This document shows positions 20,025 through 40,422 of a stretch of 64,000 bases of DNA, piece by piece (position 1 is the first letter of the stretch; each line of letters begins with the position of its first letter). The notes under the pieces were generated by a model. It was not told the origin of the DNA. It made no database searches and saw only the letters and a list, made by a program, of their open reading frames with translations. Position numbers and translations under genes: made by a program. Source of the DNA: a virus; the IMG/VR virus record IMGVR_UViG_3300009370_000002, one strand, 5' to 3'.

Positions 20025-20650
20025 CAGTTTCTCAATATTTTGTTAAACAAGCCATCCAATATAATGCCTCTCTTCTCGTTGATTTTGTTTTCATACACTC
20101 TTGAGCCAACCGCTATGGTTTTTTCAGGATAAATATACGCATTTGGAGTTGAAGGTTCCGATACAATATCAAAGCAAATTAATTCAAAATCCTCTTGAAC
20201 AACTGTATTGCCGGCAACTTCGTTAACTGACCCAAGTCCCCGAGAAGATATTCCAAGCTTAATCCCAGAATTAATTAAGTCTTTTAAGATTCTTCCAGAT
20301 GGAGTGTCAAGAACCTTAATCTTACCCATGACATCATTCCCTTCCCACCACATGTCAGTAACAACATGAGATACATTTCTCAAGTTGATAACCGAGTCAT
20401 CAGGATGATCAAGTTCACCTAAAGCTCTGTTGTCCTTAATAACGTTCATGTAATTTTTGATTTCTTTTTGAAGAACCTTGCAAGGATATATTCTACCATT
20501 TCCGTTCTTCTTCTCACAAGTCTGGAGTCTACCAGACAAATAGAGGGCGCCATTTTCAACTTCCCTCTTTTCACGTTCGGTTAACAAATCTTGACAAATG
20601 CCATCTTTGCACAACTCGTAAAACTCTGTTAAAAGTTGCTTTACCGCCAT
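20024..20650 (-). CDS. Prohead core protein protease (T4 gp21 family)
   Basis: NGRIYP, ALGELDHPD, VSH, TPSGRILK, LGISSRGLGSV, FDIVSEPSTPNAY are gp21 signatures. Confidence 0.95.
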   Translation of the reverse strand: MAVKQLLTEFYELCKDGICQDLLTEREKREVENGALYLSGRLQTCEKKNGNGRIYPCKVLQKEIKNYMNVIKDNRALGELDHPDDSVINLRNVSHVVTDMWWEGNDVMGKIKVLDTPSGRILKDLINSGIKLGISSRGLGSVNEVAGNTVVQEDFELICFDIVSEPSTPNAYIYPEKTIAVGSRVYENKINEKRGIILDGLFNKILRN

Positions 20651-21102
20651 CTTCTTCTCCTCACGTACATCTGATTAACATCAACGCCGTGCGGTTGCCA
20701 GCTTTCAACATCTCCATTGGAATAATCAACATCAATTATTCCACTTTGCATTTTGGTTACATTTGTGATTTTAGGCAAACCTTCTATATCGGTACTCTCC
20801 GGATCCATGTCCCATGCGTTCTTCCATTTGGAATTAAGCATATAGAGACGGAAAAGCTCTCTACGCCCAAGGCTTAGTGACTGAAGATATTCATCTCTCA
20901 TGTTGTCGCGAATATAAGAATTGAGTAAATGCTTAACTGTCCCTGTCATAGGGGCACTTGACGCTACAGGCGCCTCGGGTGCAGTCTGCGGCTCAGCCAC
21001 GGCCTTGGGAGGCAAATCCATAGGCAGTTCCAATTGTGCATAATTTGCCTCTTTCATTACCTCTCTGACATATTGTTCCAATAGTTTTTTGGTTATCTTC
21101 AT
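20641..21102 (-). CDS. Hypothetical protein with shared N-terminal leader (MKITKKLLEQYVREVMKE)
   Basis: ORF track; coupled to neighbours; leader motif. Confidence 0.7.
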   Translation of the reverse strand: MKITKKLLEQYVREVMKEANYAQLELPMDLPPKAVAEPQTAPEAPVASSAPMTGTVKHLLNSYIRDNMRDEYLQSLSLGRRELFRLYMLNSKWKNAWDMDPESTDIEGLPKITNVTKMQSGIIDVDYSNGDVESWQPHGVDVNQMYVRRRRWR

Positions 21103-21407
21103 TGTTCCCGATTGCCTCTCATAGCCGCCTTTGCTGCTCTTATCTTATCCATAATTTTTGCGGCTTCAGATGCACCGAAAAGATTCGCTAGCTCTTCTTC
21201 TTGTCTTTTCAAATTTTGCTCTTCTCTTGGATCATCCACATAAGTACCCTCATCGGGATCACCAGCAGGAAGATTTCTTGGATCGGCCTCTCCTCTCCTC
21301 ATCCTTCCCATTCGTTTGTGGTGAACGTGGGCACCCATATCAAAATCATCCGATTCGGACAATACTTCACGAATCATTTTCATAAGTTGTTCAGTTGTTA
21401 ATTTCAT
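21099..21407 (-). CDS. Hypothetical protein with shared N-terminal leader (MKLTTEQLMKMIREVLSE)
   Basis: ORF track; leader motif; SD AGGA. Confidence 0.7.
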   Translation of the reverse strand: MKLTTEQLMKMIREVLSESDDFDMGAHVHHKRMGRMRRGEADPRNLPAGDPDEGTYVDDPREEQNLKRQEEELANLFGASEAAKIMDKIRAAKAAMRGNREQ

Positions 21408-21447
21408 TTTGTCAATTCCTATAAAATACCGGCGCTACCGGCGTGTG

Positions 21448-21501
21448 TCAACTTCCGCTACAGCAGCGTCGAACAGGTTGTAACATCCATTTCTTACTCA
21501 T
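21448..21501 (-). CDS. Candidate 17-aa micro-ORF MSKKWMLQPVRRCCSGS
   Basis: Hand-translated; AGGAG SD 6 nt upstream of the ATG; fills the gap between two genes; in frame with the upstream TAG. Confidence 0.5.
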   Translation of the reverse strand: MSKKWMLQPVRRCCSGS

Positions 21502-21510
21502 AATAAACTC

Positions 21511-21816
21511 CTAGTTGTAAAAAAGATTTATGCCTTCATCTCCAATAGCCATGGAAAGGCTATAAGAAGTTCCAGCAGATATAAAACCACAAATAAAGAA
21601 ATTCGCGATTGTATAGTCAAAAGTAAATAGTTCAGTGCCGCCATTTATCAAGAAAAGAAAGCAACCGACCCAAAAACCCATACAAAGAGGGCAGTGGAAT
21701 AACCAAGTCCACATTTTTTCAGGATTTTTCTCTGGCCTTATTGAGTGAAATATGCTGCCATAAACCAAAATAAAGGTAAGCCCAAAAGAGGCAAGCACAA
21801 AATAAAGTAATTCCAT
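21511..21816 (-). CDS. Small membrane protein with CxxC-x-GFW motif (DUF1360-like)
   Basis: Three hydrophobic segments, FHCPLCMGFWVG; start moved to ATG 21816 (GGAGA SD). Confidence 0.6.
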   Translation of the reverse strand: MELLYFVLASFGLTFILVYGSIFHSIRPEKNPEKMWTWLFHCPLCMGFWVGCFLFLINGGTELFTFDYTIANFFICGFISAGTSYSLSMAIGDEGINLFYN

Positions 21817-21855
21817 TAAATCTCCAATTTTTTTCGTCAAATACTATCAAATACA

Positions 21856-22422: not shown

Positions 22423-23234
22423 TATTTGTTTACCTCTGCAACCAAATCTTGGATATAAAAAATCTCTTTAACCACCTGTTCTGTAATTGGTGTGTTGGAG
22501 TAAGCGTCAAGTTGCTTTAAAACTTGCTTAGTTTTAGTCAAAAAAGACTCATTTTCAGTGATTTTTTGTTTATTGGTACACAAGTATACCTCAGCCTTAA
22601 GACGTGAAATTTCCTCGTTTATGAACGATTTAAGCCCTAGTCCATTATCGGAAAATGAGGTAATATAATTCATCAACAAATCTTTTTGTTCTTGCCTCAA
22701 GCTATTACCGTATGTTTGATTGAACTTCTTGGTGAATGTTTTGTAGGTGAGGTTATCAATATGATTCATTTCTTTATTTTTTCGCCTTTCTGAAGACATG
22801 AGTCCAACCAGGCGGCTCTCCACAAGAATGCGATTCTTTGCCTTAAGGCTTGAATTGAAGTATGCACCAACAGATGCAATGTCTTTATAGTTTGAAATAA
22901 AATTTGCAAAAGCAGAAGGGGACATTATTTCATTAATTTGCTTGATTAATTTTGTTTGCTGATTGAATATTGCTTTACGATTAAGGCTTTCAAAGTCCTT
23001 CTTCGTCTCAATAAGAAGTCGATGGGCAAATTCCGCCGACACTTTCTTACTCTCTAAGACAGATCGATAAATGTCCAAATCCTGCTTGAGTACAGAACCT
23101 TTCTTGAAATTTTCTTTAACGATGTTCATTATTTTTTGCTTTTTGTCTTGTTGGTTTCTGACGATTGCCTTTGTTAATTCTTTCATAAGACATTCGTAAA
23201 GAAAAGCGGTATTTCTTTTCTTATTGTGTTTCAT
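22422..23234 (-). CDS. Hypothetical basic helical protein next to the portal gene (MKHNKKRNTAFLYE...)
   Basis: Start moved to ATG 23234 with AGGAG SD; ACTATTTA copy at 23295..23302. Confidence 0.7.
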   Translation of the reverse strand: MKHNKKRNTAFLYECLMKELTKAIVRNQQDKKQKIMNIVKENFKKGSVLKQDLDIYRSVLESKKVSAEFAHRLLIETKKDFESLNRKAIFNQQTKLIKQINEIMSPSAFANFISNYKDIASVGAYFNSSLKAKNRILVESRLVGLMSSERRKNKEMNHIDNLTYKTFTKKFNQTYGNSLRQEQKDLLMNYITSFSDNGLGLKSFINEEISRLKAEVYLCTNKQKITENESFLTKTKQVLKQLDAYSNTPITEQVVKEIFYIQDLVAEVNK

Positions 23235-25134
23235 CCTGTGTCTCCTTTGATTTAAACAGACTCTCAACTAACTTGTTGATGTCGTGCTTTGTATTAAATA
23301 GTTTCTTTTCTTCGTTATCATGAGTCTCCATTATTCCACTTGCCATACTCTTTAGGCCGTCCTTACCACCATAGCCAGCCGGAAGAGATGCCCTTGGAGA
23401 AGAAGGTCTGCCAAACTCCCCAGCCGTCGCCACAGAAGAATAGTTTTGGCTTCTTCTGGATTTTCTCTTCTTTCCTGACATGTTGTATGGCCCTCTAGGA
23501 CTATCATCTCTCTTTGCTGGTGGCTCTGCTAAAAGAATGTCTTCTTCATCTCCACCGGTTTCCTCGGCTGGTTCCTCTCCACCCAAGTCACCACCTAAGT
23601 CACCTTCCAAATCACCACCAAGATCGCCGCCTAAGTCACCACCTAAGTCACCACCCAAATCTCCTCCTCCCTCTTCACCACCACCTTCTGCGGCACCTTC
23701 AAGTTTGGCTGTAAACTTTCTATCAAAGAACATTTCCCTTTGCATGCGAACAAACTCATCTTCTGATAGTCCTAGCAAATTTTCAGCAACCCATCGTTTG
23801 GAAAAGAATCCCTCCGTGGCTGAGCCTGCGATATCAAACTTTGCCTTCCAATGCTCTATTTCTTGAAGTTCGGCAATTTTGGATGGGTTATTGAGGCTGA
23901 GGCTAAATGAGAGCAAATCATCTCCTCTAAAGCCAAGCGTAAACAGGTGAACGATTCCTATCTTTTCCAATTCTGAAATCACCGCTCTTTGGAGTCTTTG
24001 GATTGTTCTGGCGAATCGAATATCTTTTTGAGCTAATGTTGTTTTGTCTTCTGTTGCTCCCTCGCCCATTGTCAAATAAGACTGCGGTATCTTAAGGGCT
24101 GAGAATAGTTTATCTCGTAGATACTTGACATCATCTACTTGTCCAGAATAGTCGCCACCTTTTAGTGACTCTATCTTCGTGTTGGAGGTTCCACCACGAA
24201 CTGGTATAAAATAATCCTCTTCTATTGATAATGGATTGTATCTCAAGTCAACTCTCCCTGTCTTTGGATCCACAACTTGGTGTCGTTTCATTTGAGTCAT
24301 TACCTTCTGCATGTATTGTTCAACGTCCTGTGGAGCGATAGAACCAACATCAACATAAAATGCTCGACGCTCTGGGGCACGAACAATTCGGTATGCCATC
24401 ATCGCATCCTCAAGGAGCGTTAGTTGCCTCCAAATCCGTCGAGCAGGCTCAAGCACTGAGGTACCATAGGGAACGTGTTTGTCATTTCCCATAATCCTAA
24501 AGTGTGCTACCTGCCAGTTTTCCAACGTTAGGGCTGCGCTGTTCCACTGAAACTGTACATAATTGGGATTTGATTCATCTTCGCCCTCCATTCGCTCAAC
24601 TTCTTGCGGAGGCAAGCCAATTGCGCTCCGAATGCCTGCGTCATCGTCAATATCCAAATACAAAAAGAAATCTCCATACTTACACATTGTTCTACACCAA
24701 CCAAACAAGTTGTGTTCAATGTTCATCACATCATGATATAATGCATGCAAGATTGTTTTTATTTCATCATTTGAACACTTTATCTTTAGCATATCGTGCA
24801 AGGCTGAATGTGTTGTCATCTCATCAGCATATATATCAAGGGACGAATTGATTTCGGGGGTGAACTCCATTTGATCAAAATCAACATAACGCTCAGAACG
24901 ATTTCTATTAGATATCATATTGATAGTGGTTACGTTCATTGGGTTGTATTCTGATTTTTTGAATTGTTTCCCGGAAGCTGACTTAAATCTTTTAGCATAT
25001 GTGTCCAAATGTCTTCGTTTTATTTGTCTACCTGACTGCGTTCGACGCTGGGTTATTGGTCCGGAAAAAAGCCTTGTTAACGCTCTGAATAATCCAGACT
25101 CCTCATTATACGGGTTTTTATTGTTTTTAGCCAT
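23221..25134 (-). CDS. Portal vertex protein (T4 gp20 family)
   Basis: PYGTSVLEPARRIWRQLTLLEDAMMAYRIVRAPERRAFYVDVG, EEDYFIPVRGG, DDVKYLRDKLFSALKIP are gp20 motifs. Confidence 0.95.
   Translation of the reverse strand: MAKNNKNPYNEESGLFRALTRLFSGPITQRRTQSGRQIKRRHLDTYAKRFKSASGKQFKKSEYNPMNVTTINMISNRNRSERYVDFDQMEFTPEINSSLDIYADEMTTHSALHDMLKIKCSNDEIKTILHALYHDVMNIEHNLFGWCRTMCKYGDFFLYLDIDDDAGIRSAIGLPPQEVERMEGEDESNPNYVQFQWNSAALTLENWQVAHFRIMGNDKHVPYGTSVLEPARRIWRQLTLLEDAMMAYRIVRAPERRAFYVDVGSIAPQDVEQYMQKVMTQMKRHQVVDPKTGRVDLRYNPLSIEEDYFIPVRGGTSNTKIESLKGGDYSGQVDDVKYLRDKLFSALKIPQSYLTMGEGATEDKTTLAQKDIRFARTIQRLQRAVISELEKIGIVHLFTLGFRGDDLLSFSLSLNNPSKIAELQEIEHWKAKFDIAGSATEGFFSKRWVAENLLGLSEDEFVRMQREMFFDRKFTAKLEGAAEGGGEEGGGDLGGDLGGDLGGDLGGDLEGDLGGDLGGEEPAEETGGDEEDILLAEPPAKRDDSPRGPYNMSGKKRKSRRSQNYSSVATAGEFGRPSSPRASLPAGYGGKDGLKSMASGIMETHDNEEKKLFNTKHDINKLVESLFKSKETQDETQ
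23578..23670. repeat. Degenerate 12-bp tandem repeat encoding (GGDL)n in the portal C-terminus
   Basis: About seven GGDL/EGDL units with synonymous variation. Confidence 0.85.
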
Positions 25135-25142
25135 AATTTATC

Positions 25143-26726: not shown

Positions 26727-26732
26727 TAAACA

Positions 26733-27284: not shown

Positions 27285-27669
27285 TGTTGGGTCTCCATCC
27301 TAATGTCCATCGTTTCTCTCTGCCTTCTACCCATTGTATATAGCACTTAAAGCAACAATCAAACTTAGACATATAAACATCATCTTTTGACTTAAATGAG
27401 TACGTACTACACACAGGACAAGAACGCTTTGATTCTTTTGTAAGTAGTTTCTTGGATATGAAAACTCCATTTACCTCCTCTTCTGAAGACTCTTGCTCTA
27501 TTTGATGAGAGTGAAGTGTTTTCAAATCATTAAGATATTTTTTTTCTTTATCGTCTGACCATTCGCTTTTTGGGTGTTGGACTGTTTCGTTTCCGTATTT
27601 TTCCACTATTGCATTTTCAACCTTAATAGCATAATTGGGATCTTTACTTTTCACTCCTACTCCTATCAA
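27277..27669 (-). CDS. Hypothetical protein with C-terminal Cys cluster (possible zinc finger)
   Basis: CPVC...CCFKC. Confidence 0.65.
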   Translation of the reverse strand: MIGVGVKSKDPNYAIKVENAIVEKYGNETVQHPKSEWSDDKEKKYLNDLKTLHSHQIEQESSEEEVNGVFISKKLLTKESKRSCPVCSTYSFKSKDDVYMSKFDCCFKCYIQWVEGREKRWTLGWRPNNG

Positions 27670-27929
27670 CCAGCAGCCTGAATGGCGGCTTTGATTACTT
27701 TATCAACTGCGCCTGCTAGTGTTTCATCTCCAGCGGCTTTTGCAATTTCTATTGCCTTTTTCAATATGATATCGTTTATTTGACTGCCAACCTCTTCGGC
27801 TGCATCTCCTGCTTTATCTCCAATGTCACCAAAATCAACAGCGGCTTCTTCTTCTGCAAGTGTTATCTCATTATACAAATCAACTTCTTCTTTAATAATC
27901 TGCTTTAATCTTTGTTCTGTTATTTTCAT
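27666..27929 (-). CDS. Hypothetical protein with shared N-terminal leader (MKITEQRLKQIIKEEVD)
   Basis: ORF track; leader motif; SD GGAG. Confidence 0.7.
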   Translation of the reverse strand: MKITEQRLKQIIKEEVDLYNEITLAEEEAAVDFGDIGDKAGDAAEEVGSQINDIILKKAIEIAKAAGDETLAGAVDKVIKAAIQAAG

Positions 27930-27941
27930 TTTCTGTCTCCT

Positions 27942-28346: not shown

Positions 28347-28353
28347 TTTTACC

Positions 28354-29566: not shown

Positions 29567-29964
29567 CCTTTTTGAATTCCCAATTCTTGTTCTAAAATCC
29601 TATCTATCTCTTCGGGGCTGTGTTTTGCTTTTTGTACCATTTTCTTGATTGCCTCTTTTTGGCTGTGGGTTGTGTTCCACTTGTCTTCTTCATACTTCTC
29701 TTCAATTTTCTTAACCGCTTCAGAGTATCTTTTGTTTGCTTCTTCTCTTTTCTTAATCTCAAGCTCATGCGCTCTCTCAATTGCCTCTTTCTCTTTCTTG
29801 TACTGCTCTTTGGCTAGATTCGCCTGAAGTTTGATGCTACCTGCGCTCCTTCTGCCTAACGTATAAGCAATAACAAAGATAGTTAATAATACTAACCAGC
29901 GCCAATGCTGCCGACAGAAGACACCAGCTATCTTAAGATATTTAAGCGCAGCTAACCAAGTCAC
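29563..29964 (-). CDS. N-terminal TM plus long coiled coil (i-spanin/Rz-like topology)
   Basis: WRWLVLLTIFVIAYTLG then a charged heptad region. Confidence 0.5.
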   Translation of the reverse strand: MTWLAALKYLKIAGVFCRQHWRWLVLLTIFVIAYTLGRRSAGSIKLQANLAKEQYKKEKEAIERAHELEIKKREEANKRYSEAVKKIEEKYEEDKWNTTHSQKEAIKKMVQKAKHSPEEIDRILEQELGIQKG

Positions 29965-31010
29965 ACCCTTGCACCTCTTGCAGCAGCAACCTTCTTTAAG
30001 TCTTCAACCAAGCCAGCGGCTCCACGTTGCTGTTGCCAAGATACCAAATCACCAGTGTTTGCTCGATAACCATCGCCCATGCCAGCATAAGACATCCATT
30101 CACCCCATTGCCTTGCGGCATCTGGGCCTGCGGCTCCTGCTGTATACATCTTGTCGAGTTCAATCATCATGCCGCTCTCAGTCATTCCAGAGAGTTTAAG
30201 ATTCTCAACGATTGACCAAACATCAGTGTCCATCTCCAATACTTCACTGATACCCTCTTCTACCGGGCTACCATACATGTGTGCAGACATGGCTTCATAC
30301 TCTCTACACGCTTTTTCATCACCAGCATCACATTTTGCTTTCATGTCCATTAGGTAATCTTCTTCTCGGGACTGCTCTTGAACCTTCCCAAATTCCTCTC
30401 TTATCATCTGCTTGAGTTGTTCTGAGGTTATGTTCAGCGACTCTTGAAAGCCAAAGAAGCCGGGCTTCTTGGCGTATTGCCCAGCAGCAGTTTTACTTTG
30501 TATCCAATCCATCGTAGATTCAAATTTGCCTTTTTTCCAATCACTTTTGAAATCCTGCATCAACTTTGCAGTTAGTGATTCTGGGCGGTATTTACCAAAA
30601 TCCATTGCACCACCTTCGGCACCAGACTTCAAAAACTTCAACAAATCTGCTTCAGCTTGGGCCTCCAATTTCCTACTATAAGGCACTGAATAGTCTCGTT
30701 CTGGTGCTTTTCTTTTACCGCTGTCTTGAGCTTTGTCAAGCATTTGTCTCATATCTTCTTCTTCGTCTGCTTTGAAAACACCTGATGCGATAGCGTTGGT
30801 ATAAGCCTTTATTATAGCAGCCTTGTCACCAGAATCTCTTGCGAGTGTAATTTTAGCTCTTTGTCTTGATTTCTCAGCTTGCTCTTCTCGGTTAAATTTA
30901 TCCAACTCGGAAGGGACAACATCATCATGTCGCCCACGAGTTTGGAAGTCCATGTCTCCACGGATTGATTCTCTAATCAGTTGCCTAAGTTGTTTGGTTG
31001 TTAATTTCAT
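29961..31010 (-). CDS. Hypothetical protein with shared leader (MKLTTKQLRQLIRES) and an internal second copy
   Basis: Internal LNITSEQLKQMIREEF. Confidence 0.7.
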   Translation of the reverse strand: MKLTTKQLRQLIRESIRGDMDFQTRGRHDDVVPSELDKFNREEQAEKSRQRAKITLARDSGDKAAIIKAYTNAIASGVFKADEEEDMRQMLDKAQDSGKRKAPERDYSVPYSRKLEAQAEADLLKFLKSGAEGGAMDFGKYRPESLTAKLMQDFKSDWKKGKFESTMDWIQSKTAAGQYAKKPGFFGFQESLNITSEQLKQMIREEFGKVQEQSREEDYLMDMKAKCDAGDEKACREYEAMSAHMYGSPVEEGISEVLEMDTDVWSIVENLKLSGMTESGMMIELDKMYTAGAAGPDAARQWGEWMSYAGMGDGYRANTGDLVSWQQQRGAAGLVEDLKKVAAARGARV

Positions 31011-31014
31011 CAGC

Positions 31015-31377
31015 TTATTCCTCCATGTGAGATGCCATTTGGCGTAATGATTCTTGGCTATTGTTTGAAGCTGAAAGGCGCATACCTTTTTGCCTATAAC
31101 CTTGTGCCTTTAGTGCTTCTATTACCTCACCCAAGTCTCCGCCGCCCATACCACTAGGGTAGTATTGTGAGCCGCGACTTTGTTCTGGTTCGATAATTCC
31201 GATGACGCCATTGTTATAATCATACTGTCCAAAACTCTGTGGTTTTCCAGAAACGCCACCGACAACTCCATATCTAAAGTCATACTTCATCATCTTATCA
31301 ACGTCCTGCGCTCTGCCCATCATTTCGTTGAGTTCTTCTTTAATAATCTGTTTAAGTTGTTTTTGTGTCAATTTCAT
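31015..31377 (-). CDS. Hypothetical protein with shared leader (MKLTQKQLKQIIKEELNE)
   Basis: Start moved to ATG 31377. Confidence 0.7.
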   Translation of the reverse strand: MKLTQKQLKQIIKEELNEMMGRAQDVDKMMKYDFRYGVVGGVSGKPQSFGQYDYNNGVIGIIEPEQSRGSQYYPSGMGGGDLGEVIEALKAQGYRQKGMRLSASNNSQESLRQMASHMEE

Positions 31378-31655
31378 CACATTTGCCCTCCATTTTTCCA
31401 AACTTTAACCATATCGATGACAGATTGTCCACCGACATAAATCATCGCAATCAAGCCCCATGTGTCTGGGTCCAAGTCTGCCCAGACAAGAAGTCCAGTT
31501 GCAACCAAGAACACGAACAGCTTTCGTGAAATTGCCTTTGAAAGGATAACGTCCATTACCCCAACCTTGTTAACTAAGTCTACGGCTTCACAGCCGGTGC
31601 AGTCTTGCACATCACAATGTGCCTCTTCTACTTCAACATCATTTTGTTCGCTCAT
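31377..31655 (-). CDS. Putative holin-like membrane protein
   Basis: SRKLFVFLVATGLLVW and WGLIAMIYVGGQSVIDMVK, two TM segments; Cys/His-containing acidic N-terminus. Confidence 0.5.
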   Translation of the reverse strand: MSEQNDVEVEEAHCDVQDCTGCEAVDLVNKVGVMDVILSKAISRKLFVFLVATGLLVWADLDPDTWGLIAMIYVGGQSVIDMVKVWKNGGQM

Positions 31656-31936
31656 TATTTATTCCTCTTTTTTGATTCTTGCATCATTCCGCCCATGGCC
31701 ATTTCCAAAGCTTGCATGATACTTCCTTCCCTTGGGGGTTGGATGTTTTTCGCAGCTTGTGAGCTATCAAGAAGCTGTTTAAACTCAGCAGCAAGTTGTT
31801 GGATAGCTTGTTGATCAAAACCTTGTGCGGCTCTGTGGGTGTGTCCTGTCCATGTCTCATGCCCTTCACCAATAGAGTGCTTCAATTCTTCTTTGATAAT
31901 CTCTTTCAGTTGTTCTGCTGTTAACTTCATCGGCAT
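31655..31936 (-). CDS. Hypothetical protein with shared leader (MKLTAEQLKEIIKEELKH)
   Basis: SD AAGGAG; leader motif. Confidence 0.7.
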   Translation of the reverse strand: MPMKLTAEQLKEIIKEELKHSIGEGHETWTGHTHRAAQGFDQQAIQQLAAEFKQLLDSSQAAKNIQPPREGSIMQALEMAMGGMMQESKKRNK

Positions 31937-31941
31937 TCTCC

Positions 31942-34900
31942 TTATACATTTACCTTTGCGTAACCATCGACTTTGTCTATGTCGATTGTCATGTCCACAA
32001 CGTCCTTCAAAGAGTCAAGATGAGAGATTAATATTACAGTCTTGAATTGATTCTTAATGATTCGTAAAAGATTTGTAAAACCTTCCATATGTTCTTGGTC
32101 TAAAGCCGTAGCAGGTTCATCAAGTATAAATAGTTCGCTTTTTGGCAAATTTGTTATTGAAATCAAAGCTAAACGTATTGCCATCGATGCAAGTGTCTTT
32201 TCTGCTCCTGAGCCCATTGATAGTGGGCGAGGATCATAGTATGGGTGCTTGATGTTTATATCGAGCTTATCACCGCTTGATTCAAAGAACACTTCAAACT
32301 CCACAATATTGCTGAGTATCTTTGCTATCTCTTCATTAAGAAGAGGGAGCTTTTGCTTAATGATGTTGTAGGGTATGCCGTTAGGATGCATACACTGCAT
32401 AAATAAGTCATATGCAACCCACTCTTCCTCGATAGTCTCAAGCTCTTTCTTGTTTGCCTGTAGTGACTTGAGGGTTGCTTGTGCTGCTCCTTGTTCGACA
32501 AGAAACTTGGTTATCTTATCTTGACACTTATCGTATTGTTCCTTCTTCTGTCTTACTGTTTTTTCTATAGCGGTTCGTTCTCGAATTAAAGTCCCAAGAT
32601 TTTCGATAGCCTCTCGGTTGTCTTCATACTCTTCTACCTTGGCATCAAGTTCAGCAATTTCATTAACCAACAGTTTAACTTTGTTTTGGTTTGAAGTGAG
32701 AGTTAGGCTCCTTGTCTCAATCAGTCTTTGAGCCTTCTCAATCTGAACTTGATAATCATGATACTCAGTCATCCTGATATCGACAGTTTGTATGTCTAGG
32801 GCGTCGAAATCGCTTATTAAATCAGCTTTCATGCTCTCAAGGTGCCCTAGCCTAGCTTTAACATTTGGAAGCGATTTTTCGGCGTTTTTGGCGTCCTTAA
32901 CAAACTTGTTATCAGAGCAGTATTTACAATTCGGATCATACTTGTGGTTGTGAAGCATGTTGATTTTGTCCACCAAGTTGTTGCGGTCTTGCAACAGCGT
33001 AGATGCTGTATCTCTAATCCTGGCTATGTCGTTCTTTATTTCGTTTGCCTCTTCCTTAATGGAGAGCAAATCCTCCATGTCAATCTTCTTGACATTTTCT
33101 TGACAACTTTCTAATGACTCCTTCGCAGATTGTATTTCTGCTTCAATATTTGTGTTGTTTTGCAAGAGCATTGTGCGGCTTCTTGATTTTTGATTTATTG
33201 TCTTATTGACACCATCTATATCAATTATTTCAGCAGGTATGCTATCAATCTTATTGACAACTTCAGATAACTCCTGTAGAAGCTCTTCTTTGCGAACTTG
33301 CATGATGGAACAAATATTTCTTTGTTTCTCAATATCTTCAGCTACCTCTTCAAGAATTTCAACATTCTTTTGAATCTCCTTATCCCAAGGCTTCTCATTT
33401 AGCTTTTTAATAAGCCCTTTCATTTCTGCTGCATCTTTTTTGGCAAGCTTAAACTTCTTATCAAACACTTGCAAATCAAGAAACTTCGCAAGAATCTCTT
33501 TGCGCTTTGTCACGCCCTCTTTAACAAAGGAGAGAGAGTCAAGCTGGGATGACATGGATGTCAATAAGAAATCCTCCATTGTCCCAAACCGTTTGCGGAT
33601 ATTAGCATCCGTTTGATTTCTGGTTGTGCCATTCATACTTTCATCTTCGGAAATTAGCGAAAAGTCTAAATCGACTTTTGCCTCGATGGTTTCCTTTCCT
33701 CGCAATCGCTTTTTGTATTTCTCAAGGTTGCGGCATACTTGGTACGTCTTATCTCCGATATCAATTTGAACTTTACCCTTGGCTCTCTCTCGATTTTGGT
33801 TAATTACGTGGACGTTTTTCCTTTCACCTTTTGATGTTGAATTAAACAACGTGAATAAGAGGCTATCAATAATGCTAGACTTTCCGGAGTAATTACGGCC
33901 GAAGATTCCAACAAGTCCTCTGAGGTTTTCGAAGTTGACACTGTTTTTTTCACTATAGTTGAACAGGTTGTCCCATTCGAGCTTTTTGATTTTCCAAATA
34001 ACATTTCTTGATATCTCCTCGCCTTGTTCGGCTAAAATGTTATACTTTTTATTGTATTCGAGTACTTTGTCTATTACGGAGGTTTGAAGCTCCATTTCCG
34101 ATAAGTAGTCACGTATATGCTTTTCTTGCACAGATATATTTCTTAAGTTTTCTGAAATAACACTATTGGCATAATTTCCATCATCATGATGAGAGTGGGA
34201 CTCCTTCCCATTAAGAGTTGTAACCGAAAACGGATTCCATCTTGCTTCAGCAATTGCTCTTGCCTTTCTAAGCTTATCTGACGGGAGATTCGTTCTTGAT
34301 ACTATTCTTAAGCGGCAGTTCCTAGGGGCATGGGCGTCATCAGGGAATGATCCATCCTTATTAAGCCTGACGGTGATGAATGGCCTGGGATTAGATATAT
34401 GAACACTCTTGACATTAAAATCATCTTTGTTCTGTATCTTCCACAAAAGGTAGCCCTTTTGGGGAGACTCTGAAAACTTCTGTTGAATTGTGGAACCACA
34501 ATACCGAACTCTACCCTCAGTGTCTAACGATTGTTGTCTGTGGATGTCGCCGAGCATTGTGTAATCAAAATCTCTGAAAATTGAAATATCATCGTCTCCA
34601 ACATCCATTGTCCAATTCGCCCCTGTCTTAGAGCCTGCTATTGCTCCATGATAAAGAGCAACATTAACTTTGTGCGCCTGTGTTGGCTTTATCCAGTTGC
34701 CTCTGTCAAAGATTGACAACACGTTGAGACACAAACCATCATCAATGTGAATTTCACCAGAGTCCTTCATAAGGTGAAGCCTAGGGTGATTTAGTGCATT
34801 AACTATTGGCGTAAGGGCATCCTGCCTACTGTCGTTCTTAAGGTTGCCATCATGGTTTCCGAGAATGACATATGTCGGAGCTATGTTTGCCAAAGACGAC

Positions 34901-35094
34901 AAAAACTCAGCGCAAAGTTGAAAGTACTCTGGGCTGAGTTGTGTTTTTGTGTGGGCGATGTCGCCGCAATGAACAATGCAATCAGGTTGCTCTGCTACTA
35001 AGGACTCATACAAATTGCGAAATGCAATTCTGTATTCATCGTGATATTTCAAATTGCGAATATGAGTATCCGCCAAGTGTGCTATTGTATACAT
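31942..35094 (-). CDS. Fused Mre11/SbcD nuclease - Rad50/SbcC ATPase (T4 gp47-gp46-like)
   Basis: Metallophosphoesterase motifs ADTH, GD, GNHD, GDIH; Walker A GRNYSGKSS; zinc hook CKYC; signature MGSGAE; Walker B ILDEP; H-loop LISH. Confidence 0.93.
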   Translation of the reverse strand: MYTIAHLADTHIRNLKYHDEYRIAFRNLYESLVAEQPDCIVHCGDIAHTKTQLSPEYFQLCAEFLSSLANIAPTYVILGNHDGNLKNDSRQDALTPIVNALNHPRLHLMKDSGEIHIDDGLCLNVLSIFDRGNWIKPTQAHKVNVALYHGAIAGSKTGANWTMDVGDDDISIFRDFDYTMLGDIHRQQSLDTEGRVRYCGSTIQQKFSESPQKGYLLWKIQNKDDFNVKSVHISNPRPFITVRLNKDGSFPDDAHAPRNCRLRIVSRTNLPSDKLRKARAIAEARWNPFSVTTLNGKESHSHHDDGNYANSVISENLRNISVQEKHIRDYLSEMELQTSVIDKVLEYNKKYNILAEQGEEISRNVIWKIKKLEWDNLFNYSEKNSVNFENLRGLVGIFGRNYSGKSSIIDSLLFTLFNSTSKGERKNVHVINQNRERAKGKVQIDIGDKTYQVCRNLEKYKKRLRGKETIEAKVDLDFSLISEDESMNGTTRNQTDANIRKRFGTMEDFLLTSMSSQLDSLSFVKEGVTKRKEILAKFLDLQVFDKKFKLAKKDAAEMKGLIKKLNEKPWDKEIQKNVEILEEVAEDIEKQRNICSIMQVRKEELLQELSEVVNKIDSIPAEIIDIDGVNKTINQKSRSRTMLLQNNTNIEAEIQSAKESLESCQENVKKIDMEDLLSIKEEANEIKNDIARIRDTASTLLQDRNNLVDKINMLHNHKYDPNCKYCSDNKFVKDAKNAEKSLPNVKARLGHLESMKADLISDFDALDIQTVDIRMTEYHDYQVQIEKAQRLIETRSLTLTSNQNKVKLLVNEIAELDAKVEEYEDNREAIENLGTLIRERTAIEKTVRQKKEQYDKCQDKITKFLVEQGAAQATLKSLQANKKELETIEEEWVAYDLFMQCMHPNGIPYNIIKQKLPLLNEEIAKILSNIVEFEVFFESSGDKLDINIKHPYYDPRPLSMGSGAEKTLASMAIRLALISITNLPKSELFILDEPATALDQEHMEGFTNLLRIIKNQFKTVILISHLDSLKDVVDMTIDIDKVDGYAKVNV

Positions 35095-35500: not shown

Positions 35501-36435
35501 ATTATTCTCCTTAGCTCATCCATCAAGAAATAGTCATCATGGTCAATTGCTTGAGCCATCTGTTTTCGAGACAAAAAAGTACGTAGCGGCATTTCGGCGA
35601 TGTCCTCAAAGCCACTCGTATCAATCTTATAGAGTTCTATATCATAGTATAACATATTTTTGATGATTTGTCCAGTCTTTTTTTCAGCATCTTTGTCAAA
35701 TGCCATGTAGACTGGTGTATCGTTGAGGGCAATAGCTTGGAATAGTTTTGTCTTGTCTCGGAGAGTTGAGCCCAGAACGGGGATAGCGTTTTCCCCAGCC
35801 GCTATGGCATCAAAAACGCCTTCTACGAGAGTGATGGGCTCATCCCAGTCTACGTGGAGTTCGTTGAAAATAATGTCCTTCTCAGCCGGGGGGTTGAGGT
35901 ATCTCCACTTATGTCCAACATAGGAACGAGCGATGAAATAATTCACATCTCCGTTGTTATTGAAGGAGGGGATGATGATCCTGCCTCCATATCTACCCTC
36001 TGCACAATAGCCAATCTTCCATCGGAGAATCTCCTTCTTTGTGATGTCTCTGCTCTTGAGATAATCGAGAGCTTTCTTGGATGAACGAGGCAGATGTTTG
36101 TTGCAGAGCGAGATAAACTCCTCGGGGAGAGGAACCGTCTGTTCTTCCTCTATGTTATTGATTTCATTGAAGATTTCGTCAAACTCTGATAAGTCGAGTC
36201 TACCTTCAAGTTCAAGCCACTTCTGTCTCTGCTGGTATGATCCGAATTTGCGAACGATACGATAAGCGTTCTTGCCTCGCCTGTCGCAAACCCAACAATG
36301 CCAACCTCGCTTGAGATTGATTGCAAGCTTCTTCTTGTGATGATTGCAATACGGACAATGATAGTAGAGTTCTCCACCTTGAGGGGTGTTGGGCCTTCCA
36401 AGAATGTCCGATAATATTCTAATCTTTTGTTCCAT
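35497..36435 (-). CDS. DNA primase (DnaG/gp61-like)
   Basis: Zinc finger CPYCNHH...HCWVC; RIIIPS; TOPRIM EGVFDAI and FDKDA. Confidence 0.92.
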   Translation of the reverse strand: MEQKIRILSDILGRPNTPQGGELYYHCPYCNHHKKKLAINLKRGWHCWVCDRRGKNAYRIVRKFGSYQQRQKWLELEGRLDLSEFDEIFNEINNIEEEQTVPLPEEFISLCNKHLPRSSKKALDYLKSRDITKKEILRWKIGYCAEGRYGGRIIIPSFNNNGDVNYFIARSYVGHKWRYLNPPAEKDIIFNELHVDWDEPITLVEGVFDAIAAGENAIPVLGSTLRDKTKLFQAIALNDTPVYMAFDKDAEKKTGQIIKNMLYYDIELYKIDTSGFEDIAEMPLRTFLSRKQMAQAIDHDDYFLMDELRRIM

Positions 36436-36604
36436 TTATCACCTCCAAGTTTTCCACTCGTACTATTTCAACTCTTCCATCTGTCATAAGAACATAAGCC
36501 GCCACACAATACACAACATCCTGTATCTCTGTAACTATACCAATACGGCCATCATTCCCGTTGGGAACCCACTGATCACATTTTACCAAATCACCTATCT
36601 TCAC
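36419..36604 (-). CDS. MKIGDLV-family small SH3/KOW-like protein, copy 1
   Basis: GTG start; KIGDLVK...GIVT...LEVIN. Confidence 0.75.
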   Translation of the reverse strand: MKIGDLVKCDQWVPNGNDGRIGIVTEIQDVVYCVAAYVLMTDGRVEIVRVENLEVINGTKD

Positions 36605-36987
36605 TTATCACCTCCATCCGGTTCTTTTTCTACTCTATAGAAGGCAACAACATCATAAATATCGTTGCATGTCTGACCGTGTGCATATGCAATACCTCGC
36701 CAATTGCAATCGCCTACATCTGTGTCTGGGTGGCAATCTCTTTTGATTTCGCCCATAGAAGTCTCAACCCAACAATCTAGATGATCGACATCACATTGCA
36801 CCGCACTAATAGTTACTGATGCGCCCGGATAACCCTCCTCTGCCATTTCTTCATACTCTTCACATTCCCAAGTAACGTCTGATATATATACTGCTTCATA
36901 ACCTGGATGGTATGAAGACGTAGGAATATAGAACCCTTCACATGATGATAGTACCAATGATGCTATAATATATTTATCTATTTTCAT
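36601..36987 (-). CDS. Putative Cys-rich lipoprotein
   Basis: Lipobox-like LSSC after a hydrophobic stretch; six further Cys. Confidence 0.6.
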   Translation of the reverse strand: MKIDKYIIASLVLSSCEGFYIPTSSYHPGYEAVYISDVTWECEEYEEMAEEGYPGASVTISAVQCDVDHLDCWVETSMGEIKRDCHPDTDVGDCNWRGIAYAHGQTCNDIYDVVAFYRVEKEPDGGDK

Positions 36988-37196
36988 TTTTTCCTCCCAA
37001 CTGCGATTACGTCACCCTCTTTGCACTTACGAGAGTAGACATGTATTGTCGTGGGCGAGTACTTATGAAACAAAGAATCATAAATCTCGATTGTGCATAC
37101 GCCCTTTTCTGCTTTGTCTACTGTTCCTATGATTGTGTATTCAACCTTGGGCTTTGAGTGCGCCAAGCATCCCACAAATAATAATATGTTAATCAT
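36984..37196 (-). CDS. Putative small lipoprotein
   Basis: MINILLFVGC; two further Cys. Confidence 0.55.
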   Translation of the reverse strand: MINILLFVGCLAHSKPKVEYTIIGTVDKAEKGVCTIEIYDSLFHKYSPTTIHVYSRKCKEGDVIAVGRKK

Positions 37197-37377
37197 TTAT
37201 CACCTCCAAATCTTGACCAAACTTGAATACTGTGCCGCCATCGGCAATCCAATAAACCTTCCAACCATATTCTCGTGAACGAGCAATGATGACTCCAACT
37301 CGGTTTTCAACCTCTTGGGGGCTGTACTCGACATTTTTCCATTTCTTCCTTAGTTTTACCAAATCACCGATTTTCAT
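37189..37377 (-). CDS. MKIGDLV-family protein, copy 2
   Basis: MKIGDLVK...VGVII...WKVYW...LEVIND; start at ATG 37377. Confidence 0.75.
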   Translation of the reverse strand: MKIGDLVKLRKKWKNVEYSPQEVENRVGVIIARSREYGWKVYWIADGGTVFKFGQDLEVIND

Positions 37378-37537
37378 TTTCAAAATAACCCCCCGTAACC
37401 ACCTCTAAGTTGGTAAAGTAAGTCCACTTAATATTAGCGGTTTCCGACTCATAAATATGTATCACATGTCCGTCTATAGCCACAACTATGCCAATGGCAT
37501 TACTGCGTTTCCAGCGCACTAAATCACCCACCTTCAT
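37364..37537 (-). CDS. MKIGDLV-family protein, copy 3 (57 aa, not in the ORF track)
   Basis: Hand translation MKVGDLVRWKRSNAIGIVVAIDGHVIHIYESETANIKWTYFTNLEVVTGGYFENENR. Confidence 0.75.
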   Translation of the reverse strand: MKVGDLVRWKRSNAIGIVVAIDGHVIHIYESETANIKWTYFTNLEVVTGGYFENENR

Positions 37538-37709
37538 TGACTACCTCCAAATATTCTATTTTGTATTTTGAGTGCCCTCCGTGGCACCAAACAACCCAAA
37601 CTATTTCATCTATATGGGTGCCGCCCTGTCTTGGCCAATGTTCCCTTCTTGATGTCACCACACCAATCCTATGGAAATACTTACACCTTACTAAGTCTCC
37701 GATTTTCAT
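37524..37709 (-). CDS. MKIGDLV-family protein, copy 4
   Basis: MKIGDLVR...IGVVT...VVW...LEVVNE. Confidence 0.75.
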   Translation of the reverse strand: MKIGDLVRCKYFHRIGVVTSRREHWPRQGGTHIDEIVWVVWCHGGHSKYKIEYLEVVNEGG

Positions 37710-37863
37710 TTATCTTCTCCATGTGCTTTTCAGGCGCCATTATCATTATAAGATTTTCAATCATGGCAATCACCCACCACCTTGTATCTCTATCACGAAT
37801 ACTATACTTATTTAATATAATAGCATAACCACCATTATAACGAACCAAATCACCGATTTTCAC
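37681..37863 (-). CDS. MKIGDLV-family protein, copy 5
   Basis: GTG start; KIGDLVR...MEKINE. Confidence 0.7.
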   Translation of the reverse strand: MKIGDLVRYNGGYAIILNKYSIRDRDTRWWVIAMIENLIMIMAPEKHMEKINENRRLSKV

Positions 37864-38032
37864 AGTATGCCTCCAAATGATATACCTGTTCCCACTCTAC
37901 GGTACCAGCACTAAACCAATAAACCTTAATAAACTTAATCCACCTTGAGTCAAGCTGGAGTATTATACCGCAACCATGATAAAGCTCGTTATCGTTTCGA
38001 GCACATACCAAATCACCAACTTCAAACTTCAC
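37850..38032 (-). CDS. MKIGDLV-family protein, copy 6
   Basis: Probable GTG start at 38032; KFEVGDLV...GIIL...VYW...LEAYCE. Confidence 0.7.
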   Translation of the reverse strand: MKFEVGDLVCARNDNELYHGCGIILQLDSRWIKFIKVYWFSAGTVEWEQVYHLEAYCENR

Positions 38033-38177
38033 CAACCAATTCCAAGCACTGTTCAAGGACAATGGACTCTCTGCCATCATCCCACTCTACCAATATCCAC
38101 CAAACGCTATGCCTGAAGACTGGCCCTTTAGATATTCCAATACCATCTTTGAACTTTACTCTGGTTCCCACTTTCAT
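38022..38177 (-). CDS. MKIGDLV-family protein, copy 7
   Basis: ATG 38177 with GGAGG SD; MKVGTRVK...VEW...LELV. Confidence 0.7.
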   Translation of the reverse strand: MKVGTRVKFKDGIGISKGPVFRHSVWWILVEWDDGRESIVLEQCLELVGEV

Positions 38178-38226
38178 ATTCTTCCTCCGATAAATTGAAT
38201 ATAACACGTTTAGAGATTCTGTCAAA

Positions 38227-38439
38227 TTAATTTCCAACCAGCACTAACCATTTTTCTGCATATGGTTTTGTTTCATTCGTGGCTGGGAAATGTATATCCC
38301 ACATAACAGCGCCCCTATCATATGTAACCTCAAGTATTTCCCTCCAGCCCAATTGCCTCACGATTATGCCTACTTCATCTGGTTCATATGAGAATACTGC
38401 CACTCTCACCAAATCCCCCAATTTAAACTTCGGCTTCAT
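38227..38439 (-). CDS. MKIGDLV-family protein, copy 8
   Basis: KFKLGDLVR...VGIIV...LVLV. Confidence 0.7.
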   Translation of the reverse strand: MKPKFKLGDLVRVAVFSYEPDEVGIIVRQLGWREILEVTYDRGAVMWDIHFPATNETKPYAEKWLVLVGN

Positions 38440-38578
38440 ATGGCTCTAGATTCAAAACCCACTCACTCTTTGTTGTGCCATCCAACTGCAAAACATACCA
38501 GACTTTTTTGGCAACCTTTCGAATTAAAACCACCGGCTGTCTTTCTATCATTGTCTGTACCAGATCACCTACTTTCAT
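38423..38578 (-). CDS. MKIGDLV-family protein, copy 9 (51 aa, not in the ORF track)
   Basis: Hand translation MKVGDLVQTMIERQPVVLIRKVAKKVWYVLQLDGTTKSEWVLNLEPYEAEV. Confidence 0.75.
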   Translation of the reverse strand: MKVGDLVQTMIERQPVVLIRKVAKKVWYVLQLDGTTKSEWVLNLEPYEAEV

Positions 38579-38729
38579 GCACTACCTCCAAATTGGAAAT
38601 TGGTTCCATATAAATATATTCTTTTCCTGCCCACAATACTTCCACAAGACACTCGCTTATTACCCCAACAACCAACCCAAAAGCTATATGGCTATCTGAG
38701 GCAAAGCGAACCAAATCACCGACCTTCAT
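38565..38729 (-). CDS. MKIGDLV-family protein, copy 10 (54 aa, not in the ORF track)
   Basis: Hand translation MKVGDLVRFASDSHIAFGLVVGVISECLVEVLWAGKEYIYMEPISNLEVVHESR. Confidence 0.75.
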   Translation of the reverse strand: MKVGDLVRFASDSHIAFGLVVGVISECLVEVLWAGKEYIYMEPISNLEVVHESR

Positions 38730-38883
38730 TGATTACCTTTAAGTATTTTTTTTCTTCAAACTCTGTTTGTGGCTTGTCACCAGGCTTCCATTTAACAACG
38801 ACGATTTCGCCCATCAAGTGTACAATTTCGCCTGTTCCAAGGGCGGGTCTCCATTTCCTTATAACTTTATCTCCGATTTTCAT
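38716..38883 (-). CDS. MKIGDLV-family protein, copy 11 (55 aa, not in the ORF track)
   Basis: Hand translation MKIGDKVIRKWRPALGTGEIVHLMGEIVVVKWKPGDKPQTEFEEKKYLKVINEGR. Confidence 0.75.
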   Translation of the reverse strand: MKIGDKVIRKWRPALGTGEIVHLMGEIVVVKWKPGDKPQTEFEEKKYLKVINEGR

Positions 38884-39064
38884 TTACCACCTCCAAATCT
38901 TCTATTCTAACGTTTTGAATTGCGTTATAGTCTATCCAATGCACTGTGGCATATTTTTTGTCTATTATTGCGATAACTGTCCCGTATCCATACATTAACT
39001 CTGGTGCCTTGTATGGGCTGGCGTCTATTACCAATGAGCCAACTTTTATGGTGTCTTCTTTCAT
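38867..39064 (-). CDS. MKIGDLV-family protein, copy 12
   Basis: IKVGSLV...GTVI...VHW...LEVVNE. Confidence 0.7.
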   Translation of the reverse strand: MKEDTIKVGSLVIDASPYKAPELMYGYGTVIAIIDKKYATVHWIDYNAIQNVRIEDLEVVNENRR

Positions 39065-39090
39065 ATAACATAGTATGAAATGAATGTCAA
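39062..39090 (-). promoter_or_regulatory. Possible sigma70-type promoter at the head of the small-ORF array
   Basis: Perfect TTGACA, 17-nt spacer ending TGT, imperfect -10 TATATG that overlaps the annotated ATG. Confidence 0.45.
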
Positions 39091-39091
39091 A

Positions 39092-39250
39092 TTATTTTGA
39101 TTGATTTAAATAATTATTAAAGCAAACATAAGTAAACACACCACTCAAGGCACACCAAAACCAACTTGAAGTTGCAAATGCAAACCAAAAAAAATAAAAG
39201 TTAAGTACGGCACAAAACAAACTTACCCATTTACTGTTTAAAAAATTCAT
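39092..39250 (-). CDS. 52-aa aromatic-rich two-TM membrane protein (not in the ORF track)
   Basis: Hand translation MNFLNSKWVSLFCAVLNFYFFWFAFATSSWFWCALSGVFTYVCFNNYLNQSK; AGGAG SD; ATGA overlap with the resolvase stop. Confidence 0.7.
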   Translation of the reverse strand: MNFLNSKWVSLFCAVLNFYFFWFAFATSSWFWCALSGVFTYVCFNNYLNQSK

Positions 39251-39780
39251 CTCGACTCCTTTTCAATAAGTAGTCCTGCTCTGGCAATAACAACAGAATC
39301 TGCCATATCATCGGTTCCAGGCTTGGGGTTTCCATATCTTGTATACTCAACAACAAAATCTTTTGGATACTGATTCTGCGCCCATTCAATGACTTTGAGC
39401 TTTGTATTTTCACCCCTCTTTATTTTCAAACCAACTAACCCACGGGCTTTGTTTGCCGCTATCAATGTTGCCGAAGTTCCATACAGGTTTCGTACCATCC
39501 ACGATACCATACCATTAAAACGCTGGAGTTTTGCCATTGTCATTGCAGTTGTCTTCCCTCCAGAAAACATTATGAATGGTGCCTCAATATATATTTCTTT
39601 TATATAATATTTGTTATAATTAATTTGCAAATATCTCTCTAATTCAAAACATCTATCTTCTAATGTGCCTTTAGAGTTTAGTTTAATTACTTGACAATCA
39701 AGTAAGTCTGCGTTAGAATTCAGTATGGTTATGCCAACCTTGCTTGTACTAACATCCAAGCCTAAAATAGTTTCTTTCAT
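39247..39780 (-). CDS. RuvC-like Holliday junction resolvase
   Basis: ILGLDVSTS, IYIEAP, DDMADSVVIA acidic catalytic motifs of the RNase H-fold RuvC family. Confidence 0.85.
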   Translation of the reverse strand: MKETILGLDVSTSKVGITILNSNADLLDCQVIKLNSKGTLEDRCFELERYLQINYNKYYIKEIYIEAPFIMFSGGKTTAMTMAKLQRFNGMVSWMVRNLYGTSATLIAANKARGLVGLKIKRGENTKLKVIEWAQNQYPKDFVVEYTRYGNPKPGTDDMADSVVIARAGLLIEKESR

Positions 39781-39787
39781 AACTTAC

Positions 39788-39816
39788 ATTATAACATATT
39801 TTTTGTGGATTGTCAA
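39788..39816 (-). promoter_or_regulatory. Consensus sigma70 promoter with extended -10
   Basis: TTGACA-N17(ending TGT)-TATAAT, perfect consensus; ATG follows after 7 nt. Confidence 0.9.
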
Positions 39817-39819
39817 ATA

Positions 39820-40422
39820 TTATTTCAAACTTGCTCTTTGAAAATTGCTTAACCCTTTCTGTAGTTCTGGGTTTGTTTGTTGTGCGTAGTCTAAAGCGCC
39901 GGATGCCTTATCGAGTGCTTGCTGGCCGGTGAAGTTGCCTTCTATGCTACTGTTGTTTGGCGCTTTGACTTTCAAGGTGGCATGTGCATCTGCTCCGGAA
40001 ACCTTCGAGAGAACAAAAAGATACTCCAAACCATTATCGCACCGAATATCAATAGAGAGTTCTTTGCCTGTGACTTGTTGCGTTTTCATCGCAACCTCTT
40101 CCAAGCTCATCTTGCACTCTTCTGTTGTCATTTCCATCATCGAAGTTTGAATCTCTTCGCCGGCATCTGACATCTGTGTGGATTTTGCTGCTGTCATTGC
40201 TTTGTGTACGTCACCCTTTTGGATTTGAGTATTTACGATTTGGTTTTCAACATTCCAATTTTCAACTGCTGCTTTGGCTACATTTGGAGCAAATCCAGTT
40301 TTGGCGATAAGAAGCCCAACGATGAGTTCCTTCAAAGTGATTTCATCCAATTGTTTCTTTTCTTTTGCGTCTTGTATCTCTTCGTTAATAATTCGCTTCA
40401 AATCTTCGCTAGTAATGTTCAT
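39820..40422 (-). CDS. Hypothetical protein with shared leader (MNITSEDLKRIINEEIQ)
   Basis: Start at ATG 40422, AAGGA SD; ACTATTTA motif at 40443..40450. Confidence 0.7.
   Translation of the reverse strand: MNITSEDLKRIINEEIQDAKEKKQLDEITLKELIVGLLIAKTGFAPNVAKAAVENWNVENQIVNTQIQKGDVHKAMTAAKSTQMSDAGEEIQTSMMEMTTEECKMSLEEVAMKTQQVTGKELSIDIRCDNGLEYLFVLSKVSGADAHATLKVKAPNNSSIEGNFTGQQALDKASGALDYAQQTNPELQKGLSNFQRASLK

Follow-up and report, generated by a model that had tools for sequence, protein, structure and literature searches.

How a set of unrelated phage proteins comes to share one short N-terminal peptide, and what that peptide does for them, is the question raised by a 64,000-nucleotide stretch of viral DNA from IMG/VR (record IMGVR_UViG_3300009370_000002; hereafter the window), a strand-uniform stretch of an uncultured marine T4-like ("far-T4") myovirus. 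In the window, a 16-residue leader, MK[IL]T..QLKQIIKEE[LI], forms the N-termini of eight minus-strand open reading frames (ORFs) and recurs at one internal site. A first-pass annotation of this DNA had read the leader as a portable, amphipathic-helix address tag that loads diverse cargo into the prohead, is removed there by a gp21-type protease, and so equips the phage with a modular system of injected effectors. Our analysis suggests that the leader is probably a propeptide of the T4 capsid-targeting sequence (CTS) kind, docked to the prohead core and removed by a gp21-type protease. We favor this reading because residue spacing, an ending shared with a capsid-protein cleavage site, the presence of the protease, selection at the level of the peptide, the strand and start position of the copies, their modularity, and their occurrence in chains all agree with it. 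The nine copies are distributed as follows (aa, amino acids; minus strand, -):

20641..21102 (-): leader gene 1, 153 aa, MKITKKLLEQYVRE; adjoins the protease gene on its upstream side, placed like T4 gp68
21099..21407 (-): leader gene 2, 102 aa, MKLTTEQLMKMIRE; placed like T4 gp67
27666..27929 (-): leader gene 3, 87 aa
28596..29396 (-): leader gene 4, 266 aa, MKVSNELLKKIMTEE
29961..31010 (-): leader gene 5, 349 aa, two leader-cargo modules fused
30387..30437 (-): internal leader copy LNITSEQLKQMIREE in leader gene 5; begins with a CTG codon, has no Shine-Dalgarno sequence, and is preceded by F-Q-E-S
31015..31377 (-): leader gene 6, 120 aa, MKLTQKQLKQIIKEE
31655..31930 (-): leader gene 7, 91 aa, MKLTAEQLKEIIKEE
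39820..40422 (-): leader gene 8, 200 aa, MNITSEDLKRIINEE

All of the copies noticed in the first pass were present on the minus strand, and only the leader Met of the seventh gene had to be moved, from 31936 to 31930, the ATG at 31936 lying inside the Shine-Dalgarno spacing. The eight ORFs begin MK[ILV]T..QL..II.EE, with L8 and E14 invariant in the window, and a loose form of the pattern was matched nine times against a mean of 1.0 in 50 shuffles, a count that skips the copy at 21102 and takes in one unrelated match at 26854. Beyond the leader, the proteins are as unrelated as had been claimed, the leader-stripped cargo showing no mutual BLASTP similarity at E<1e-4; for leader gene 4, there was neither a Pfam match nor an Atlas look-alike.

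The residue pattern of the leader matches the one mapped in the T4 CTS. Among 214 unique leaders, the consensus reads M1 K2 [IL]3 T4 K5 x Q7 L8 K9 Q10 I11 I12 K13 E14 E15 [LI]16, and M1, T4, L8, I11, I12, and E14 are its most conserved positions: position 8 is Leu or Ile in 214/214, position 11 is Ile, Leu, or Met in 205/214, position 12 is Ile in 198/214 and Val in 13/214, and position 14 is Glu in 202/214. Counted from E14, the conserved L8, I11, I12, and E14 fall at P7, P4, P3, and P1. The T4 protease gp21 cuts after L/I-x-E, and in the CTS of T4 IPIII, residues 4 and 7 have been mapped to targeting and residues 8 and 10 to processing (PMC9026906). These mapped residues are likewise P7, P4, P3, and P1 of the peptides found in the T4 record (MKTYQEFIAE in IPII and IPIII, MKTFKEF..ITE in IPI), and the gp24 peptide, MAKINELLRE, is spaced alike. 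With Asp at P1, the T4 CTS is no longer processed. The genes of the head that bear on this comparison are encoded on the same strand:

6368..8164 (-): major capsid protein of the gp23 type (identified by tblastn comparison with T4-like and far-T4 phages)
7988..7999 (-): predicted capsid-protein maturation site L-L-R-E/S, residues 56-59, the slash marking the cut (alignment with T4 gp23/gp24)
8188..9444 (-): candidate scaffold in the gp22 position, acidic (isoelectric point, pI, 4.4), with many hydrophobic-x-E sites
19587..20024 (-): 145-aa protein encoded just past the protease; its N-terminus loosely resembles the leader (LIKE, CIRE, VIFE)
20024..20650 (-): prohead protease, T4 gp21 type (Pfam Peptidase_S77, E=2e-35)
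23221..25134 (-): portal protein, T4 gp20 type (Pfam Portal_T4, E=1.9e-79)

A T4-type large terminase is encoded in the window as well. The gp21-type protease on which the first-pass annotation relied is thus in place; it shares 38% identity with T4 gp21, the two sequences aligning at the GELDHP and SSRGLGS motifs, and its N-terminus carries QLLTE(9), which resembles QLLIE(9) of T4 gp21. Among cultured phages, the major capsid protein comes closest to those of Flavobacterium phage immuto, Microcystis phage Mel-JY01, and Rhodothermus phage RM378, with 42-49% identity along portions of its length. Its predicted site lies at ..ELLRE/SSS, in register with ELLRE/S of T4 gp24, and the form L-[LV]-[KR]-E/[SA] is kept in 16 relatives. 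This predicted site shares the ending of the leader (..QIIKE/E), and one leader reads ..QLIRE/S. The candidate scaffold, for which a Pfam search returned no match, may possibly be the docking partner of the leader, and the 145-aa protein, homologues of which are kept in 62 related loci, is a candidate core protein. When the nucleotide sequence of the head region was compared with GenBank phages, nothing closely related came up.

The 113 unique leader proteins fell into 89 cargo families, and the cargo of the window had homologues in 0-1 related loci (in only one for leader gene 1), while most of the neighboring genes interleaved with the leader genes had homologues in 16-84 loci and two small neighbors in 5. 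The closest relative, L001, encodes a protease 93% identical to that of the window, and its DNA is homologous to the window (~84%) through the leader of the gene that begins at 27929; the homology ends at 27880, which is the end of the leader, and restarts just past the stop codon. The two proteins have 17 of their first 20 residues in common and nothing beyond. Because the DNA homology stops at the leader end, the cargo of leader gene 3 is seen to have been swapped relative to L001. Leader gene 4 (28596-29396, 266 aa) is, as a whole gene, a clean insertion or deletion with respect to the same relative. Leader-cargo units act as exchangeable cassettes.

The units also occur in series. Two to four leaders were found in 30 of the best 120 matches of a search of 5.8 billion proteins, and in 147 of the 149 newly returned sequences among the best 150 matches of a search of cluster representatives, with the modules spaced at a median of ~140 residues. 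Internal copies often have neither a start codon nor a Shine-Dalgarno sequence; one L119 ORF contains four leader copies, the internal ones of which begin with Thr, Ile, and Glu codons and lack a Shine-Dalgarno sequence. The residues that precede internal copies are typically ..hydrophobic-x-E-(N/S/G)-K, and a hydrophobic-or-Ala-x-E site lies no more than 7 residues upstream of 63% of internal copies against a background of 28%. The 349-aa protein of the window is a fusion of two leader-cargo modules, because its second module (158 aa) stands alone as a gene elsewhere, where it starts with Met and the leader and is 85% identical. The domain of this second module is found in 111-aa stand-alone versions too, its conserved part being ~95 residues long and 75-88% identical across stand-alone genes. 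An AlphaFold model of the second module is an all-helical bundle (mean predicted local distance difference test, pLDDT, 73; core ~80-88) in which the leader lies within a long N-terminal helix, and a Foldseek search of this model against the PDB gave no match at E<=0.001. The conserved domain is rich in Trp (..DAARQWGEWMSYAG..SWQQQRG..), occupies 29964-30250 (-) in the window, recurs in sequences P0121-P0128, and belongs to no Pfam family.

Distribution was assessed in 80 related IMG/VR loci, retrieved via the protease, and in public metagenomes. A profile hidden Markov model (HMM) built from the nine window copies, a count that the first-pass annotation had proposed, recovered all nine and gave 98 matches over the related loci and the window together, every one of them on the gene strand. 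Each starts at Met or Val except for two, the internal copy of the window and a match in L051 that begins at Leu, one codon past Met. Near-complete relatives of 178-186 kb had 6-14 leader matches each. When a 29-position profile was run against 1.84 billion cluster representatives from public metagenomes, 9,976 proteins passed E<=0.001, a figure that is probably an undercount, because single copies pass only if they are near consensus, and behind which the number of clusters is inflated by hypervariable cargo. The named sources of leader proteins were the Tara and GOS marine metagenomes. A full-text literature search found no paper with the leader peptide strings and none on the CTS in uncultured T4-like phages. 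The leader in use seems to vary from clade to clade. In a sister clade (L066-L080; protease 48-58% identical), the gene directly upstream of the protease begins MKSFLKEIESKF, a leader that is shorter and nearer to T4 IPI/IPIII (MKTFKEF / MKTYQEF). A 484-kb uncultured phage, L129 (LR756508.1, 186500-195500), has a tandem cluster of small genes with the divergent leader M[KRQ][LI][ST]E..L..IV[KR]EE, and S77-like protease matches within a 576-aa frame.

A mechanism can be proposed on these grounds. As a short N-terminal helix, the leader would dock the protein, once synthesized, to the core of scaffolding in the prohead, with L8 and I11 as the putative counterparts of the T4 IPIII targeting residues Y4 and F7. 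The gp21-type serine protease would then cut after Glu14, reading Ile12 at P3 and Glu14 at P1, and free the cargo inside the head; chains of 2-4 units would be split by the same protease at hydrophobic-x-E sites flanking each internal leader. Leader plus cargo is a mobile unit that passes from one related phage to another through recombination at the leader. The motif, its conservation as a peptide, its spread, the exchange and fusion of modules, and the presence of the protease are direct observations; docking, cleavage, and what becomes of the cargo are what we infer. The notion of a portable, protease-cleavable address tag gains support from the T4 CTS residue pattern, the capsid-site motif, the swaps at the leader boundary, and the stand-alone and fused modules. 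The amphipathic character ascribed to the helix was only moderate, its hydrophobic moment of 0.40 being reached by 7.5% of shuffles.

The same conservation could in principle reside in nucleic acid, either as an A-rich 5' end of the coding sequence that enhances the initiation of translation or as a recombination hotspot, with the peptide incidental. The N-terminal copies are indeed A-rich (AAA, GAA, and ACA codons), and the DNA homology of relatives breaks at the leader end, as it would if the leader-coding segment served as a recombination site. Against this, the invariant Leu8 is written in five different codons among the window copies, identical leader residues are encoded by different codons in 49%, and the leader-coding segments have a mean pairwise nucleotide identity of 63%. 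Internal copies hold the peptide in GC-richer codons, as in leader gene 5, and without initiation signals, and ~40% of them lack the Met but are otherwise intact as peptides. The eight leader genes have no upstream DNA in common, each gene having its own ribosome-binding site, and no common promoter and no T4 late-promoter TATAAATA was seen in these upstream regions. Because codons differ and upstream DNA is unshared, the leader is selected at the peptide level and is not a recent DNA duplication; a nucleic-acid-level element, which we consider very improbable, is largely refuted by the codon data and the internal copies. The peptide could also be recognized outside the capsid, by a modifying enzyme (a radical-SAM maturase of the kind that acts on ribosomally synthesized and post-translationally modified peptides), a chaperone, or a membrane or DNA-bound assembly, and most of the observations that favor such a partner weigh against capsid targeting at the same time. 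E15 and the hydrophobic residue at position 16 are conserved as strongly as the cleavage residues, beyond what a simple P3/P1 logic for cleavage accounts for; the helix is no more than moderately amphipathic; a recognizable leader gene abuts the protease in only 23 of 78 relatives; and leader genes are interleaved with small membrane or signal-peptide proteins, and some leader genes adjoin replication and recombination genes (primase, SbcCD-like), so that late expression is not established. Capsid targeting is further weakened in that the hydrophobic-hydrophobic-x-E motif is common in all window proteins and has no discriminating power; in that the S77 protease, although present in 5/5 large contigs retrieved via a leader protein rather than via the protease, is carried by every T4-like phage and does not discriminate either; in that the cargo is mostly acidic (median pI 5.1, 79/109 below 6) where T4 IPII and IPIII are basic; and in that no cultured phage carrying the leader was found, the profile having 0 matches in the cultured far-T4 phages immuto and RM378, in which the protease is annotated or expected, and one weak match in Mel-JY01. 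A non-capsid partner nevertheless leaves unexplained why the residue spacing matches the mapped T4 CTS, why the predicted cut site of the capsid protein has the ending of the leader, and why the junctions of internal copies are enriched in a protease-type motif, and we judge it distinctly unlikely. A narrower candidate, a tag for a radical-SAM maturase, was rejected, PF04055 being present in only 1/5 complete leader-bearing genomes, all of which have several leader genes (6-14 in the four counted). Leaders are slightly more alike within one genome than between genomes (0.614 vs 0.576, permutation p=0.0025), a difference too weak to support co-evolution with a receptor.

Even if the leader targets the prohead and is clipped, its cargo could be an expendable core or scaffold filler like T4 gp67, gp68, and gp22, degraded and expelled before DNA packaging and free to drift, with only bulk properties mattering. 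By comparison with the T4 gene order, two leader genes occupy the gp67/gp68 position just ahead of the protease, and the core proteins of T4 are cut into fragments that leave the head (PMC9026906). The cargo is short (median 109 aa) and hydrophilic, with negative grand average of hydropathy (GRAVY) scores in addition to its low pI, and is almost devoid of recognizable families: among 107 leader proteins, 4 matched Pfam families of the domain-of-unknown-function (DUF) type and about a dozen matched unnamed PHROGs, 10 long multi-copy chains yielded one DUF in Pfam, a tblastn search of one cargo protein against GenBank phages gave no match, and a search for ESM Atlas look-alikes of two cargo proteins gave nothing usable, the one Atlas model of a cargo protein having a pLDDT of 0.43. 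Such acidic character is compatible with scaffold-like fillers and acidic effectors alike. At least one cargo domain, the well-conserved one described above (75-88% identity), is modeled as a helical bundle with a pLDDT of ~80, however; the clean cassette swaps and indels between near-identical phages resemble accessory-gene turnover rather than drift; and 6-14 different fillers per genome seems excessive. A filler role for the cargo as a whole is rather unlikely in our estimation, and the capsid-targeting reading divides the leader genes instead: the likelier role of the pair next to the protease is that of core proteins resembling T4 gp67/gp68, which may be degraded in the prohead, whereas the hypervariable genes scattered elsewhere more likely encode internal proteins, possibly ejected ones. 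For ejection into the host, which the first-pass annotation had put forward as the purpose of the system, we found no evidence, the cargo being mostly acidic, hydrophilic, and without recognizable domains, and injection is something that we only infer. It is conceivable, though on balance doubtful, that abundant uncultured marine T4-like phages carry a rapidly exchanged set of at least ~10,000 unannotated clusters (at 50% identity) of leader-loaded proteins, some of them chain-cut in the prohead, that are delivered with the DNA as first-wave effectors, for example as acidic anti-defense or DNA-mimic proteins.

The surroundings of the leader genes offered further observations. In the head operon, two genes past the protease, lies a gene for ribosomal protein bS21 (19381-19587, -; Pfam Ribosomal_S21, E=2.6e-13), and the only sizeable intergenic gap of that operon, just upstream of the leader gene at 21407, holds a GC-rich hairpin, cacgccggtagcgccggt (21412-21510, -), that may act as a terminator or attenuator. 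Interleaved with the leader genes, at 21511-21840, 27942-28346, 28354-28599, 29393-29566, and 31377-31655 (-), are genes for small proteins in which membrane or signal-peptide segments are predicted, and these are kept in many relatives, unlike leader cargo. Leader gene 7 is directly downstream of a 1050-aa ORF (31942-35094, -) in which a Metallophos nuclease domain (SbcD / gp47-like) is fused to an SMC_N/AAA_23 ATPase (SbcC / gp46-like). At 36419-39064 (-), about a dozen ORFs of 51-70 aa form a tandem array with head-to-tail overlap; they start MK(I/V)GDLV, have variable middles, and end ..LEV(I/V)NE.., and the one member searched had no Pfam match.

If the leader works as read here, one 16-residue profile would mark the likely capsid-internal proteome of widespread uncultured ocean phages, and ~10,000 orphan protein families would become a defined class with a testable location and a possible role in host takeover or counter-defense. 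With the multi-module chains, the idea of capsid targeting known from T4 would come to cover the processing of polyproteins within a phage head, and the cargo swaps at the leader boundary suggest how such repertoires get shuffled. Should the effector reading also be true, the phages would have an effector system, organized in cassettes and delivered by the virion, on a scale well beyond that of the T-even internal proteins. The use as a packaging tool that the first-pass annotation suggested is not a new idea, the T4 CTS having already been used to package GFP, beta-galactosidase, and nucleases (PMC9026906).

The closest known counterpart is the T4 CTS itself. Both are short N-terminal peptides (10-19 residues) on unrelated proteins, starting M-K-(x)-T, with hydrophobic residues at P7, P4, and P3 and Glu at P1, and in both cases the phage has a gp21-type protease, a gp20-type portal, and a gp23-type capsid protein, and the cargo is hypervariable between relatives. 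Judged by sequence comparison, the resemblance is one of functional pattern only, as there is no sequence homology and the leader profile scores ~0 bits on T4 IPI, IPII, IPIII, gp24, and Alt. The leader is also longer (14-16 residues vs 10), is carried by about 8-14 genes per genome rather than the handful of T4, precedes cargo of the opposite charge tendency to IPII and IPIII, recurs inside multi-module chains that have no T4 counterpart, and is known from sequence alone. Encapsulin cargo-loading peptides provide an analogy of another sort, in which a short portable peptide sends unrelated cargo into a shell of the HK97 fold; they have no homology to the leader, mostly sit at the C-terminus, attach straight to the shell protein, and stay on the cargo rather than being cleaved off by a protease. 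In the giant phages phiKZ, 201phi2-1, and SPN3US, inner-body and ejection proteins carry long propeptides and are multiply cleaved at an S/A-x-E motif (PMC5694885, PMC9026906). As proposed here, many head proteins are cut after Glu, several times per protein, by a protease related to gp21, and the SPN3US paralogues gp53 and gp54 have identical N-termini; their propeptides, however, often exceed 100 residues and use the motif S/A-x-E, and do not consist of one short tag repeated on unrelated cargo and in chains. The polymorphic internal-protein (ip) loci of the T-even phages consist of diverse proteins that share only the CTS (Repoila et al. 1994, cited via PMC3012670). The two systems agree in keeping the leader while cargo is replaced between close relatives and in the tandem clustering of genes (here 31010/31377/31930), and they differ in that the exchange boundary is mapped here to the last codons of the leader and that the leader family comprises ~10,000 protein clusters in marine metagenomes.

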